DNA from: a virus
Strand: one strand, 5' to 3'
Virus record (IMG/VR): IMGVR_UViG_3300029305_004519
Span: 13,541 to 77,540 of that record
DNA length: 64,000 nt
Under the pieces are notes generated by a model, which worked only from the letters and a program-made list of their open reading frames with translations, did no database searches and was not told where the DNA came from. Of the stretch, positions 33,247-37,436 are shown one piece after another. Both the position numbers and the translations under genes were made by a program. Within the stretch, counting starts at the first letter, position 1; each line of letters starts with the position of its first letter.

Positions 33247-33290
33247 ACATATATATTATATCATATTTTTTTAATAAAATCAATTAAATA
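33247..33290 (-). promoter_or_regulatory. Conserved phage promoter upstream of the MVP-like gene
   Basis: Plus-strand atatatattatatcatatttttttaataaaatcaa. The ORF track reads it in frame as MILLKKYDIIYMLKK, and the same peptide appears upstream of gene 51378-52124. Confidence 0.65.
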
Positions 33291-33505
33291 ACTGATAATC
33301 AGCTAATTCTGCTTTTGCTACGTCAATGAAATCAAGATCGTTTTTACGCACTTCTGCTTCAGTTATTTGAAGAACCTCTGCAATATAACGCCCACGGCTT
33401 TCCATATACCAACTCCAATTGTCAACTCCATCCCATTCAAGACAACGGAGGATATTTTCAGCTTCAAGGAGTTCAAGGAGACGCTCTTCTGATATAATAT
33501 ATTTT

Positions 33506-34027
33506 TTACTCATTGATAACCTCCACATTACAACTCTTCATTACTTCAAGCGCTGCCTTATGCTTCTCGGGGGTAAGTCCTGCGCAACAGCTTGCATCTA
33601 CGCAGATTTGAGTAGCAGGAAACATACTGCGTAATACTAATGCGTTTGAGATTACGCATATATCTGTGTAAACGCCGCATAGCTCAATTACATCAGTCCA
33701 ATTAAAGAGGTCTCCCCAGTCATCCCAGTGTTGATATGCATAGGTAGATTTTACTACTTGATTTGAGATATAAGGTTTTAATTCATCAATAATCCAATGC
33801 CCATTCTCGTTTGCTATACAATGTGGCGGTACAAAAGCACCTTCGATAGTTTTACCATAATCTTCCTCATAATGAAGATCTTTCGTGAAAATAATAGTAT
33901 CTCCATTCTTACGCGCTTCGATACACTTTTGCACTACATTGGGAACGATAGCGCGAGCTTCAGGGGAATCAAGAGCGCCCGTTACAAAATCATTCTGCAT
34001 GTCCACTACAATCAATACTTTATTCAT
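33506..34027 (-). CDS. pncA: Nicotinamidase / isochorismatase-family hydrolase (PncA-like)
   Basis: VVDMQNDF motif; catalytic Cys in CGVYTDICV. Confidence 0.65.
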   Translation of the reverse strand: MNKVLIVVDMQNDFVTGALDSPEARAIVPNVVQKCIEARKNGDTIIFTKDLHYEEDYGKTIEGAFVPPHCIANENGHWIIDELKPYISNQVVKSTYAYQHWDDWGDLFNWTDVIELCGVYTDICVISNALVLRSMFPATQICVDASCCAGLTPEKHKAALEVMKSCNVEVINE

Positions 34028-34356
34028 TAGTTCATTCCCTCCATATATTCTTTATATTCTTCTTCTGAAATTTCTTCTACTCCATAGGAAATAGTATTTT
34101 CAATTTCTTCTCGATAGCGTGTATAGATTTCTTCGCAAGTAGCTTCATCAGCATCTTCCAAATCAATACCGAACTCCTCTTCCGCAATATCTCTTTCAGA
34201 CAGAATTCCGTGATAACCAGCATAAGACTCATAATCATCGATTGCGAGTATATATGCGGTATTATATGCTTCATCACGATCTCTTGCTTCGATATATTCT
34301 TCATTATCGCCGCATCCGCAGCCATAGTTAATTTTAAAATATTTCATACGCACCAC
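34027..34356 (-). CDS. Highly acidic small protein
   Basis: 109 aa, very D/E-rich. Confidence 0.4.
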   Translation of the reverse strand: MVRMKYFKINYGCGCGDNEEYIEARDRDEAYNTAYILAIDDYESYAGYHGILSERDIAEEEFGIDLEDADEATCEEIYTRYREEIENTISYGVEEISEEEYKEYMEGMN

Positions 34357-34697
34357 TCTCCTTTTGCATTAAGTTTATTATATTCTTCCTCCGTAATCAT
34401 CGCAATAAAGCGCCAGCCGCATTGCGCATAATATTCATTACACACCTCATCATAGTCATCAGAGTCTTTGTCATACTGTTGGCATTCAAGCCATTCTTCT
34501 TCATCATACCACTCCATACCATTTTCAGCCGCAGCTTCGTTTGCTTTATCATGATATTCATCCTCGGTCTCTGCGGCGATATATACGTCTGCTTCTTCTC
34601 CGCAAAAAGGAGTGTATGTTCTAATATGATAATAATTCATAATTAATCCCTTCCTGTTTGTTGAATAAATACTGGAATAAAACCAAAGAGGAACCAA
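34344..34697 (-). CDS. Highly acidic small protein
   Basis: 117 aa, D/E/Y-rich. Confidence 0.4.
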   Translation of the reverse strand: MVPLWFYSSIYSTNRKGLIMNYYHIRTYTPFCGEEADVYIAAETEDEYHDKANEAAAENGMEWYDEEEWLECQQYDKDSDDYDEVCNEYYAQCGWRFIAMITEEEYNKLNAKGEWCV

Positions 34698-35274
34698 CCT
34701 CTCCAGTATTTACGCCAAGGATAGTGTCCAGTTTTAAAATCGCGTTGAATAATCATTTTATCTATCCTCCTCGACTAAGTCAATTTCTTCGACATAGAAA
34801 CACCCATCCCAATCAAGAGTAGGCATCATTGCCCATTCAACTAAGTTTTCATTAGTTTTTTCCCACCCGTTGTCCTCAAAGATCTTACGAATAGGAACCC
34901 ATTGATCAAACAGGTAATAGTCGGTTTCAAAGTGAAGCCAATTCTTTTTAACAAGATACTGAAAAGCGGCGCGTCTTGATGCTGCAACTCCAATAGTGCC
35001 ATGATTTTCTTCTATGATTAAAAAAACCTTTTTCATTATTTATCCTCTCCAATTCTTAATCCTTCAACTTTGACTTTTGTCAATTCATGTGTCTTCCACG
35101 GATCCCGCTGATCTCCGCGCTCTACTTCTTCAACTATAAAGTGAATGTCTTGATCGCTGACCATTTTAATTCCATGCGACTCAAGATAGTCTCCAATAAT
35201 ATGCTTTAATTCCAAAGGAGTAATTTCAATAGTTGCCTTAAATTTCATTTTTCTTTTTTCCTCTCTTTTCCTTT

Positions 35275-35318
35275 ATTTTATAATTTATTATATCATATTT
35301 TTTAATAAAAAACAATTA
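35275..35318 (-). promoter_or_regulatory. Conserved phage promoter (middle/late class)
   Basis: Plus-strand tataatttattatatcatattttttaataaaaaacaa. Confidence 0.55.
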
Positions 35319-35347
35319 AAAAGAGGGCGATTAGCCCTCTTTTTATT

Positions 35348-36541
35348 TTATACGCCTTCCTTGAGGCGATAATCTACAGCATTTTTCAAATATTCAAGAT
35401 AGCTATCGCTTTGACACATTGCCTTGCCAATGTCATCACTAAGTTTAGCAACGGGGTGTCCATTGACATACTGCAATTTAATTACGATATTCAAAGCATC
35501 TTCATCAGTATCATTCGATAAGAAAGTGCCAATACCAAAGCTTACATTGATACGGTCTTTAAAGTGGTTGTAAATTTTCTGCGCCCTATCAAAGTTCAAG
35601 CTATCGCTGAACAAAAGAGTCTTAGTCTTAGGATCAATACCAAGTTTTTCATAATGAGCAATAATTTTCTCACCCCACTCAATAGGATCACCGCTATCAT
35701 GGCGCACACCCGTATAACAGGTAGCCTGAAGTTTGTTGAAATCCATCAGAAACAGGTCGGTGCCAAGGGTGTCAGTTAGAGCGGTTCCATTATCTCCTTG
35801 ATATTCCTCAAACCATTCGTCCATTGCCATCTTGTTAGTGTAGGCAAGGGTCACACCGGGAATACCCTGATACATCTGCACATATTCATGAGCATAGGTT
35901 CCAATAGGCTTACAGCCATACTTCATCGCGAGGTAAACATTGGAAGTGCCTACACAGTAGCCAGTTTGGAGAAGTTCGCCAACGACATAATCCTGCCACT
36001 CACGACTCAGACGGCGGCGACAGCCAAATTCCGCGAACTTAAAGTCATAGAGTTCCTCGCGGAAACCGATAATTTTGCGATAAAGTTTTTGACGAGCCGA
36101 CTCAATGAGCACATGATAATCATACTTCATACGGAAATAGACCTCATTGACAATCTCCAACAGATAAATTTCGAACTGCATTACAGAGAACAGGGGTCCA
36201 TTTACCTCAATTGCCATCTCTCCATCGTTGGTTCTCCAGCAAGCAACATATCTGCGCAGAGGGCGCCAGAGGCGTAAAAATTCTACATAATCTTTCTTAA
36301 TGAAGCGCAAAGAACTAAGATAGGCAAGCTCTTCATCAGTGAAAGTAAGAGTGCAGAGGTGATCGATTTGCGCGTTAATCTCTGCAATCATTTCATCGGT
36401 AAACTCAACACCCTTGTTTCGGCACTTGAAAATATAAGTGCCGTTGAGATTGGCGTGTTTGTGGAACATCACTTGATTCATGTTGAACTTATACAGATCA
36501 GTATCAAGCAGAGATACGATAATGGGACTTAATTTCATCAT
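35348..36541 (-). CDS. pncB: Nicotinate phosphoribosyltransferase (PncB)
   Basis: [12 protein letters not shown]-terminus; [37 protein letters not shown]...SFGIGT...[23 protein letters not shown], near-identical to E. coli PncB blocks. Start at MMKLSP with GGAGGAAAAA RBS. Confidence 0.8.
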   Translation of the reverse strand: [397 protein letters not shown]

Positions 36542-37397
36542 TTTATTTTTCCTCCTTTTTACAAATAATAAGGCAACCGTTAACCTTCGGATCAGAATAC
36601 TGCTCATTCAAAATAGTAAACTGAATATCTGCAGGTTTTTCAACTTGATATCCTTCTTCTTTTAAATACTTGGTAATAATACTTTTAAGGTCATCAGCAT
36701 TTAAGATAACATGAGTATGAGTATCAAATTTCATTTCACTTTTCCTCCTTTTCTCATATACATAGCCTTTGCTTTATTTAGGTCATCATAAGGATCTGAA
36801 ACACATACCGTTTGATTTGCTGATCCCCATCCTCCATTTACTTTTAATGTAGAAATAATATAATAAATACGAAATTCCTCTATTAAAGCAACCGATCTAT
36901 TTAAATAACAGTCATTGCCTTCTGAGGAAAGATCAGTACGATATAAAATTTGCATTTTAATCCCCTCCATACCAAGTATAGTCACCAGTTTTCTTATGAT
37001 AGTCTAAGGTTGCATCATAATAAGTAACGCTCTCAAAATAAATAGCTCCCCAATCATCATCCTCCTGAACCTTGTGAGGTACATTCCATTTTTCTGCCCA
37101 TGCTTTTAATTCATCAAACATATTATTCATTGCTTTCCTCCTTATGAATACCATCTTGTTACATCGTAAAAAGAATTTACAATCTCTTTGCAGCCAAGTG
37201 CTTCAAGTAAATCTGTCAAAAGACCATCCGCATCGCGGTGAGCAGTTTCTCCATCATCATTTTGAGCAGCTTCCTTCATTGCCATTACATAATCATCATA
37301 AACCTGACGGGAAATAGGAAGTTTCCAAACTTCACACTCTCCTTTTGTAGATATCTTTACAAATTCATTTTCCATTTCTTTTTTCCTCTCTTTCATT

Positions 37398-37436
37398 TTC
37401 TATATATATTATATCATAAATTTTAATAAAAATAAA
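37398..37436 (-). promoter_or_regulatory. Conserved phage promoter (middle/late class)
   Basis: Plus-strand atatatattatatcataaattttaataaaaataaa. Confidence 0.5.

Follow-up and report, generated by a model that had tools for sequence, protein, structure and literature searches.

A predicted nicotinamidase-NaPRTase gene pair in a variable accessory stretch of phage DNA and its possible role in returning nicotinamide towards NAD+

The window, the whole 64-kb stretch of viral DNA that was analysed, contains an accessory island whose genes lie on the minus strand throughout and include those for a predicted nicotinamidase, PncA, and a predicted nicotinate phosphoribosyltransferase (NaPRTase), PncB. 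The features of the island and its borders are as follows.

33250-33283, minus strand: end of the island, with a promoter-like site (TTGATT and TG-TATAAT, spaced by 17 nt) for the major-vault-protein (MVP)-like gene
33280-33513, minus strand: small acidic protein of 77 aa, pI 4.4, resembling T7 gp5.9 (RecBCD-inhibitor family)
33506-34027, minus strand: PncA-type nicotinamidase (isochorismatase-like cysteine hydrolase), 173 aa, predicted from Pfam, PDB, alignment and synteny
34027-34347, minus strand: acid1, 106 aa, D+E 30.2%, net charge −24, pI 4.05
34344-34640, minus strand: acid2, 98 aa, D+E 27.6%, net charge −21, pI 4.05
34682-34707, minus strand: terminator of the orf70/orf92 unit
34758-35036, minus strand: orf92, small, in its own promoter-terminator unit with orf70
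35036-35248, minus strand: orf70, small, in the same unit as orf92
35282-35297, minus strand: promoter motif after the PncB hairpin and ahead of orf70/orf92
35317-35345, minus strand: strong terminator-like hairpin, 12-bp stem, directly after PncB
35348-36541, minus strand: PncB NaPRTase, 397 aa, predicted from Pfam, NCBIfam and PDB
36543-37396, minus strand: orf84, orf65, orf74 and orf63, packed upstream of PncB in one transcription unit with it
37403-37418, minus strand: extended −10 promoter motif that opens the orf84-to-PncB unit
37435-37458, minus strand: terminator-like hairpin after the flotillin gene

These genes form two promoter-terminator units in a locally hypervariable accessory stretch. 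The promoters of the region are of the sigma-70-type extended −10 class, and their motif, TATGATATAATATATA, was matched 18 times in the window against 0.19 matches expected by chance. The four ORFs upstream of PncB overlap or abut one another and gave no family match except one weak match in PHROG; orf70, which is weakly similar to orf63, and orf92 had no match in Pfam or PHROG, and were kept in the close relative L105 at 96% and 67%, respectively. Gene-sized indels separated the window from L105, which has 174 bp in place of window positions 36547-37370, and in another close relative, L109, the set was expanded to 11 ORFs. A megablast search with the island as query gave no match among 50,697 phage records. 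A full-length MVP homologue adjoins the island, and a tRNA-repair set (RNA ligase, PNK and phosphatase) lies near it, together with 25 tRNAs. Long TAG-containing ORFs translated with TAG as Gln had no Pfam match, and TAG recoding is therefore suggestive only.

The product of 35348-36541, which the earlier note had read as PncB, contained the Pfam domains NAPRTase_N (PF17767) and NAPRTase (PF04095) and exceeded the cut-offs of two NCBIfam models, scoring 422 bits against TIGR01514 (cut-off 269.55) and 500 bits against PRK05321 (cut-off 379). It aligned end to end with PDB entry 1yir (E 1e-92), including the GTxAHE histidine segment, where its 'IGTYAHEYV' matched 'LGTMAHEWL' of 1yir and aligned also with 3os4; the histidine is thus present, and we take it to be the autophosphorylated one of ATP-coupled NaPRTases. 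These results bore out the reading, and by its sequence the gene encodes a bona fide NaPRTase. Metagenomes yielded more than 120 PncB clusters at 84-90% identity to the phage protein; the exact protein had no match in public assemblies. A match in 'Acinetobacter phage MD-2021a' was discarded, as its neighbours were the bacterial housekeeping genes serB, psd and phoR/phoB; because PncB sits among such genes, the record looks like a mislabelled bacterial chromosome.

For 33506-34027, where isochorismatase/nicotinamidase motifs had been noticed, a profile search gave Pfam Isochorismatase (PF00857) at E 1e-23 over residues 4-171 of 173, and the closest solved structure in the PDB search was the Pyrococcus horikoshii pyrazinamidase/nicotinamidase (1ilw/1im5, E 1.5e-15). 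We aligned 78 distinct sequences with MAFFT, namely the window protein, P. horikoshii PncA and 76 phage homologues. The Asp-Lys-Cys triad (D9/K93/C124 in the phage protein, D10/K94/C133 in P. horikoshii) was invariant in all of them, as was the Asp-His-His metal site (D50/H52/H69 and D52/H54/H71), a site that distinguishes nicotinamidases within the isochorismatase family. The motifs were therefore genuine and the catalytic residues intact, and the gene is predicted to encode a nicotinamidase-type isochorismatase. Against the NCBIfam equivalog PRK11609, which represents the E. coli type, the protein scored 29 bits (cut-off 174) over residues 1-55 only; it is of the short archaeal/Firmicute-like type, not the E. 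coli type. That low score might instead mean that the protein is not a nicotinamidase in vivo but acts on another amide or ester substrate, for instance a signal used in defence or a modified nucleobase, leaving PncB alone in NAD metabolism. Such a reading could also appeal to the 33 of 80 PncA-anchored viral loci in which the partners of the homologue are Prs-like and Nampt-family genes in place of PncB; a true nicotinamide-using enzyme there would face competition for substrate from a nicotinamidase, and NCBIfam placed these Prs-like and Nampt-like partners in broad families only. We regard it as very improbable, given the invariance of the triad and of the nicotinamidase-specific metal site, the standing of PncA enzymes as best solved relatives, and the operon linkage of PncA with PncB in bacteria and phages alike. 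Furthermore, most clusters, including those of the Prs/Nampt type, have NadE (close by in 69 of 80 loci anchored on PncA), which is needed for the deamidated route only.

PncA homologues adjoin PncB in phage and Ruminococcus loci, and the two genes form a recurrent module that occurs widely in phage contigs from gut and rumen and is common in related phages. IMG/VR contained 488 PncA-like stretches; PncA was present in 21 of 22 PncB-anchored loci and PncB in 41 of the 80 PncA-anchored ones, and wherever a phage or metagenomic locus had both (65 of 65) they were co-oriented and separated by less than 5 kb. The pair therefore lacks the novelty first attached to it, and Preiss-Handler clusters have already been published (PMC11662467). 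In L107, whose PncB is 87% identical, the order is NadM-like, NadE, DUF5662, PncB, a 95-aa ORF and PncA, which places the whole route in one cluster. The module enclosed DUF5662 in 47 of 102 viral loci versus only 1 of 80 genome-collection loci; a PDB sequence search gave no match for this domain, and a literature search found no paper on it.

The phage genes are host-derived, since chromosomes of Ruminococcus and other Oscillospiraceae carry the same pncA-pncB operon. Operons of the form pncA-pncB or pncA-nadE-nadD-pncB occur in Oscillospiraceae/Lachnospiraceae MAGs and in cultured strains of Ruminococcus flavefaciens, in the latter on large scaffolds (77-767 kb); their PncB is 70-72% identical to the phage protein, and PncA is about 44% identical. 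In bacteria and phage alike the two genes are neighbours and co-oriented. The bacterial genes, however, follow each other at a distance of about 20 bp with no insertion, whereas in the phage the order is reversed, PncB coming first, and the 1.3-kb gap is occupied by four small ORFs together with a terminator and a promoter.

The step from nicotinamide through nicotinate to NaMN that the earlier note ascribed to the pair agrees with both predicted enzyme assignments. The further claim that the phage rebuilds NAD+ stood for the steps to NaMN but not for the later ones: Pfam scans of about 60 ORFs in the window found no CTP_transf_like or NAD_synthase domain, and tblastn with the NadM-like and NadE proteins of L107 found no match there. 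Thus the window, which unlike L107 has no NaMN adenylyltransferase or NAD synthetase beside PncB, takes the phage alone only as far as NaMN. Because some of the bacterial operons include nadE-nadD, the likely hosts own NadD and NadE and would complete the pathway. The route was also found to be distinct, as proposed, from NARP1 and NARP2, and from NARP3 as well; the window ORFs scanned had no domains matching Adps + Namat, Nampt + Nmnat or PnuC + NadR, and neither the Pfam scans nor tblastn with phage Prs-like and Nampt-like queries detected such genes in the window.

The gene at 33280-33513, which did not figure among the first observations on this DNA, overlaps the PncA stop by 8 nt, has a GGAGG ribosome-binding site before its start, and is translationally coupled to PncA. 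Its product matched Pfam PF25708 (E 4.3e-11, 43 bits, gathering score 24.5) and PHROG 6234, 'host RecBCD nuclease inhibitor' (E 1.3e-12), was kept in L105 at 88%, and had no sequence match to any solved structure in a PDB sequence search. Like the T7 RecBCD inhibitor gp5.9, it is small and acidic and fits the family profile; that profile has 46 positions, whereas the window protein has 77 aa with a C-terminal extension. T7 gp5.9 targets RecBCD, whereas the likely Clostridia host is expected to have AddAB, and inhibition of RecBCD/AddAB by the window protein is putative.

Two proteins of extreme D/E content had been placed at 34027-34356 and 34344-34697; their acidity was confirmed, but those coordinates included upstream alternative start codons, and we refined the starts of acid1 and acid2 using homologues and ribosome-binding sites. 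The two rank first and second in acidity among the 93 minus-strand ORFs of at least 60 aa in the window (median D+E 14.5%), with a calculated pI of 4.05 for both and net charges of −24 and −21. They are tandem paralogues, acid2 being distant, from a family confined to phages, and their fold is confidently alpha/beta; acid1 has a conserved YGCGCG motif at its N-terminus. This fold is not that of Ocr or ArdA, and so strong a negative charge, although as expected of DNA mimics, is unspecific to them; the suggestion that acid1 and acid2 act as Ocr- or ArdA-type DNA mimics or anti-restriction proteins seems unlikely to us. Among 122 PncA-PncB gap ORFs from 40 distinct loci, 5 had a pI below 4.5, and 4 of these 5 came from the close relatives L105 and L109; very acidic gap ORFs are peculiar to the lineage of the window phage. 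The idea that they are general fillers of the gap was rejected, as most loci have the basic DUF5662 protein there (pI about 9.2). The proposal of an anti-defence island thus survived in part: the gp5.9-like gene and the gene-sized indels relative to close relatives support it, and the Ocr/ArdA-like acidic proteins dropped out.

We think it rather likely that the pair is an auxiliary metabolic module, acquired from hosts, which moves nicotinamide towards NAD+ and blunts defences, and that it belongs to a large phage of the gut or rumen growing probably on Clostridia (Oscillospiraceae or Ruminococcus-like). PncA would deamidate nicotinamide to nicotinate, and PncB would join nicotinate to PRPP, with ATP, to give nicotinate mononucleotide (NaMN); NaMN adenylyltransferase and NAD synthetase would come from the host or from the rest of the phage genome. 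With both enzymes active and expressed early, free nicotinamide, the product of NAD+ glycohydrolysis, would be drawn back towards NAD+ during infection, sustaining phage replication and blunting NAD-depleting defences. To our knowledge nicotinamide arises only from NAD+ cleavage or uptake, and as the phage has a nicotinamidase, a flux of nicotinamide during infection seems probable. The deamidated route consumes PRPP and as many as three ATP for each NAD+, and its dependence on two host enzymes may make it too slow against a fast NADase. Rebuilding of NAD+ is proven as a counter-defence for NARP1 and NARP2 (10.1101/2024.02.11.579819) and for NARP3 (PnuC + NadR; PMC13464706), and by analogy resistance to NAD-destroying bacterial defences through PncA and PncB is plausible. 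The surroundings, with the gp5.9-like gene, indels, extended −10 promoters and tRNA-repair set, resemble those of counter-defence or host-takeover genes. Our literature searches found no experiment tying phage PncA or PncB to defence evasion, and no paper on phage pncA as an NAD+ reconstitution pathway.

As this operon is already present in the likely hosts, the phage genes may do no more than raise the supply of NAD+. The module, copied directly from a housekeeping operon of the host, would then scavenge dietary or luminal nicotinamide and niacin for NAD-consuming phage enzymes and host central metabolism, as other auxiliary metabolic genes do, and have no dedicated anti-defence role. We hold this to be possible, although doubtful. 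The phage has an NAD-dependent DNA ligase, LigA, at 14186-17103 (adenylation and OB domains at 15970-17103; HhH and BRCT at 14186-15019), LigA lies within about 5 kb of PncA-PncB in L010, L031, L033, L035 and L037, and phage NAD clusters have been read mainly as self-supply for such enzymes (PMC11662467). The product that LigA releases, however, is NMN and not nicotinamide, so it is not one that PncA recycles, and the neighbours of the pair are typical takeover and anti-defence genes, not those of the replication module. Metabolic supply and anti-defence action are not mutually exclusive.

Depletion of NAD+ is a common end-point of bacterial immunity, as in Thoeris, DSR, SEFIR, NIR and others. 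We know of three proven phage pathways that rebuild NAD+, and of none among them that uses the deamidated Preiss-Handler route. NARP2 (Nampt + Nmnat; 10.1101/2024.02.11.579819) is likewise phage-encoded, starts from nicotinamide and PRPP and rebuilds NAD+, but it runs through amidated intermediates (Nam to NMN to NAD+) in two phage-encoded steps, in contrast to the four deamidated steps, two of them encoded, of the window route; its anti-defence activity is proven, whereas that of the window pair is suggested by analogy. NARP1 (Adps + Namat) and NARP3 (PMC13464706) share the goal of restoring the NAD+ pool by phage means, but use ADPR plus Nam and imported nicotinamide riboside, respectively, with enzymes unrelated to PncA and PncB. 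Closest to the window are the clusters of gut 'NAD-jumbo phages', described from sequence as pncB-nadD-nadE with pncA mentioned (PMC11662467): they too combine PncB and PncA of gut phages in the deamidated salvage route, with a proposed purpose of NAD+ supply in infection and possibly counter-defence. Those clusters include nadD-nadE, whereas the window has PncA and PncB only, in separate transcription units split by inserted small ORFs; L107 is of the full published type. The closest relatives of the window phage are contigs of about 106-145 kb, compared to more than 200 kb for jumbo phages. The window is one truncated, rearranged example of a module already described.

If PncA and PncB protect phages, the module would be a major counter-defence in gut phages and its phage-specific companion, DUF5662, a lead for a new activity. 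More speculatively, and with little confidence, we suggest that the deamidated PncA-PncB route, completed by NadD/NadM and NadE of host or phage and equipped with phage-specific accessory parts, is a fourth and very widespread NAD+ reconstitution pathway of gut-Firmicutes phages. The accessory parts would be DUF5662 and, in the window lineage, also the acid1/acid2 paralogues and the adjacent MVP homologue; because the human MVP cage binds NAD+ (PMC12280208), the vault-like homologue could keep NAD+ or the salvage enzymes out of reach of NADase effectors.

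PncB (397 aa) contained both NAPRTase domains by Pfam, scored 422 bits against TIGR01514 (cut-off 269.55) and 500 bits against PRK05321 (cut-off 379), and aligned over the full length with Pseudomonas PncB2 (1yir; E 1e-92), the GTxAHE histidine segment included; by these similarities its identity as a NaPRTase is unambiguous. PncA (173 aa) belonged to the isochorismatase family (E 1e-23), with the P. horikoshii pyrazinamidase/nicotinamidase as its closest solved structure. An alignment of PncA with the P. horikoshii protein and 76 distinct homologues from phages showed no variation in the catalytic Asp-Lys-Cys (D9, K93, C124), nor in the nicotinamidase-specific Asp-His-His metal ligands (D50, H52, H69). 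PncA fell below the E. coli-type equivalog cut-off (29 bits vs 174) and appears to be a nicotinamidase of a short form, unlike the E. coli type. The family scores, the intact catalytic and metal-binding residues of PncA, and the GTxAHE segment of PncB all bear out the PncA-PncB pair claimed in the earlier note.

Every gene over window positions 1-55,500 lay on the minus strand. In transcription order the island and its flanks read as follows.

37476-39014, minus strand, flotillin/SPFH protein (Band_7), first in transcription order and flanking the island
37435-37458, minus strand, terminator-like hairpin after the flotillin gene
37403-37418, minus strand, extended -10 promoter motif preceding orf84
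upstream of PncB, minus strand, the small ORFs orf84, orf65, orf74, and orf63, in that order
35348-36541, minus strand, PncB, after orf63
35317-35345, minus strand, terminator with a 12-bp stem, after PncB
35282-35297, minus strand, promoter motif preceding orf70 and then orf92
34682-34707, minus strand, terminator between orf92 and acid2
34344-34640, minus strand, acid2 (98 aa), followed by acid1
34027-34347, minus strand, acid1 (106 aa), followed by PncA
33506-34027, minus strand, PncA, followed by the gp5.9-like ORF
33280-33513, minus strand, gp5.9-like ORF, last of the run from acid2
33250-33283, minus strand, promoter between the gp5.9-like ORF and the vault-protein homologue
30716-33205, minus strand, major-vault-protein (MVP) homologue, 829 aa, downstream of the gp5.9-like ORF

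The overlaps of acid2 with acid1, acid1 with PncA, and PncA with the gp5.9-like ORF were 4, 1, and 8 nt, respectively, which fits translational coupling of the four genes. The extended -10 promoter-like motif, TATGATATAATATATA, occurred 18 times in the window with up to two mismatches, relative to 0.19 expected by chance, and 16 of the 18 occurrences were on the coding strand (for example, 33250-33265, 35282-35297, 37403-37418, 42508-42523, and 55504-55519). Because of this excess and strand bias, transcription of the island units of the host sigma-70 type is plausible; the phage itself encodes a sigma-70 family factor (28560-29480). The ORFs on either side of PncB, orf70 (35036-35248, minus strand) and orf63 (36543-36734, minus strand), shared weak similarity (31% identity over 36 residues, pairwise E 1e-4) and may be paralogues.

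A PncA relative was encoded in 488 IMG/VR stretches. PncA accompanied PncB in 21 of 22 PncB-anchored IMG/VR loci, and PncB was present in 41 of the best 80 PncA-anchored loci; another 33 of these 80 carried a divergent PRPP-synthetase-like (Prs-like) gene, which a Nampt-family gene accompanied in nearly all cases, a pair resembling NARP1 (Adps and Namat), and NadE lay close by in 69 of the 80. A Prs-like gene following the PncA homologue, usually with NadE near, was seen in Phass-1 (L001, 7998-11100) and in loci L027, L040, L042, L045, and others. Wherever a phage or metagenomic locus had both PncA and PncB (65 loci), the two genes shared a strand and were separated by less than 5 kb. One locus, L107, whose PncB was 87% identical to that of the window, encoded a NadM-like adenylyltransferase, NadE, DUF5662, PncB, a 95-aa ORF, and PncA, a cluster predicted to supply the entire Preiss-Handler route.

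In the genome collection, pncA and pncB were adjacent in cultured Ruminococcus flavefaciens strains (scaffolds of 77-767 kb), and pncA-pncB or pncA-nadE-nadD-pncB arrangements were found in many Ruminococcus, Oscillospiraceae, and Lachnospiraceae MAGs. Identity between bacterial and phage proteins was 70-72% for PncB and ~44% for PncA. From these operons and identities we infer that the phage pncA and pncB are captured host genes and that the likely hosts own NadD and NadE. Whether the host supplies these last two enzymes had been raised as a check on the salvage idea: Pfam scans of ~60 ORFs and tblastn found neither within the 64-kb window, which is only part of the genome, and both are encoded in the pncA-nadE-nadD-pncB arrangements of MAGs from the likely host groups.

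The best-supported reading, and one we consider fairly probable, is that of a host-derived salvage module from nicotinamide to NaMN that keeps NAD+ up for the phage. PncA and PncB would convert nicotinamide to NaMN, NadD and NadE of the host, or of an unseen part of the phage genome, would finish NAD+, and the module would thereby help the phage to maintain its NAD+. A plausible selective advantage would be protection against NADase defences. Glycohydrolysis of NAD+ specifically yields nicotinamide; this, together with the proven rebuilding of NAD+ by other phages and a neighbourhood resembling takeover or anti-defence regions, argues indirectly for the link to defence. Such rebuilding has been proven for NARP1 and NARP2 (Nampt and Nmnat) (10.1101/2024.02.11.579819) and for NARP3 (PnuC and NadR) (PMC13464706), all with enzymes different from PncA and PncB; because the enzymes are others, the earlier note was right to call this route distinct from NARP1 and NARP2. 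The NARP preprint (10.1101/2024.02.11.579819) mentions neither PncA, PncB, nor nicotinamidase, and a survey of viral NAD+/ADPr functions (PMC9503650) lists NadV/NadM/NadR as the only salvage route. By bioinformatics alone, gut jumbo phages were reported to encode the Preiss-Handler pathway as a pncB-nadD-nadE cluster, with phage pncA mentioned (PMC11662467). The module is already known as a sequence observation, and its counter-defence role remains a proposal. The main rival, a pure metabolic booster feeding, for example, the phage's NAD-dependent ligase, overlaps with the salvage and defence reading; we regard it as unlikely, though well short of negligible. As to the salvage module, we take the observation as confirmed and its interpretation as partly supported.

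The ORF at 33280-33513, overlooked in the earlier note, exceeded the gathering threshold for the T7 gp5.9 family of RecBCD inhibitors and is the strongest single evidence for a counter-defence flavour. ENA contig L105, syntenic with the window at ~85% nucleotide identity, differed from it in two gene-sized segments: 34053-34351 (essentially acid1) was replaced by 25 bp, and 36547-37370 (orf84 to orf63) by 174 bp. In the 106-kb contig L109, the PncB-PncA interval was 3.7 kb and held 11 ORFs, including acid1 and acid2 homologues; in L025 and L026, PncA lay directly between an orf172 homologue and MVP, with PncB and flotillin absent. Because of these replacements, this expansion, and this rearrangement, the island looks like a local accessory-gene hot spot. 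This and the gp5.9-like gene favour the proposed anti-defense island, but the extreme acidity of its small proteins is not general to the module: in most phages DUF5662, a basic protein, occupies the PncA-PncB gap. Of 122 gap ORFs only 5 had a pI below 4.5, four of them in L105 and L109.

Of the 93 ORFs compared within the window, none matched acid1 and acid2 in acidity. Their metagenomic families (42 and 16 members, respectively) had no Pfam match and were homologous to each other (profile-profile probability 93%, E 3.4e-7). AlphaFold2 models of both were confident (pLDDT 94.6 and 92.6) with a common beta-beta-alpha-alpha-alpha-beta-alpha topology, and their BFVD structure matches were uncharacterised phage proteins only. 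The acidity on which the DNA-mimic or anti-restriction idea was based stood, but BFVD offered it no characterised relative; protein or DNA mimicry is a speculative possibility.

The acid1/acid2 family, the DUF5662 companion, and the neighbouring vault-protein homologue are the most interesting loose ends outside the original claim. DUF5662 lay inside the PncA-PncB pair or next to it in 47 of 102 viral loci; among 80 loci from the genome collection, the majority bacterial, just 1 had it there. On these counts the NAD salvage module has in DUF5662 a phage-specific companion. In the window it is displaced, ~10 kb from PncA (23114-23737, minus strand); in relatives it occurs at 7459-7989 (L003), 8545-8883 (L038), and 9399-9932 (L107). 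It has H/HD/HH-type motifs, without a match in PDB or NCBIfam, and a literature search found no paper on it. The MVP homologue, directly downstream of the PncA/gp5.9-like operon, was full-length relative to the eukaryotic protein (Pfam MVP_shoulder E 1e-23; aligned to MVP residues ~320-817, E 1e-15). Its gene was kept in L105, L109, and L025/L026, and homologues at 42-43% identity occurred in megaphages of 462-735 kb that also carry PncB. The flotillin/SPFH protein has a long Ala/Glu/Lys-rich coiled coil and was conserved in L105 (93%), L109/L110, and L021. Like MVP, SPFH proteins build cage-like assemblies. NAD+ is a ligand of the human vault cage (PMC12280208); a functional MVP-NAD+ link in the phage is speculation.

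A megablast of the island against 50,697 phage records found no near-identical phage deposited; PncB relatives at 84-90% identity fell into more than 120 metagenome clusters, on contigs up to ~145 kb. Phass-1, a human-gut phage of 'code 15' that carries suppressor tRNAs (PMC10607447), also has a member of the PncA family. Among 25 tRNAs in the window was a CTA-anticodon suppressor (22478-22553), and long ORFs at 57616-58413 (plus strand) and 15012-15983 (minus strand) were broken only by TAG (10 and 5 in frame, respectively), which together suggest TAG-to-Gln recoding (code 15) as in Phass-1. Recoded translations of such ORFs looked protein-like, yet had no Pfam match. Island genes had only TAA or TGA stops and no in-frame TAG. 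The window also encodes gyrase subunits, a DnaB-like helicase, RecJ, and RNase H. Its NAD-dependent DNA ligase (14186-17103, minus strand) is split into adenylation and OB domains (15970-17103) and HhH and BRCT domains (14186-15019). The 323-aa ORF separating the two parts contains TAG and has Cys-rich repeats; it is probably a homing-endonuclease-like insertion. A ROOL RNA (Rfam RF03087; 40474-41088, minus strand; 175 bits vs gathering score 99) heads the tRNA array, ~1.5 kb from the flotillin gene. A tRNA-repair-type set was noted for two stretches, 24561-28434 (minus strand) and 40122-51365; its genes encode an RNA ligase (27244-28434), a metallophosphatase (24561-25127), and a polynucleotide kinase-like AAA_33 protein (25124-25627), and in combination with the window's 25 tRNAs it could counter anticodon-nuclease defences.
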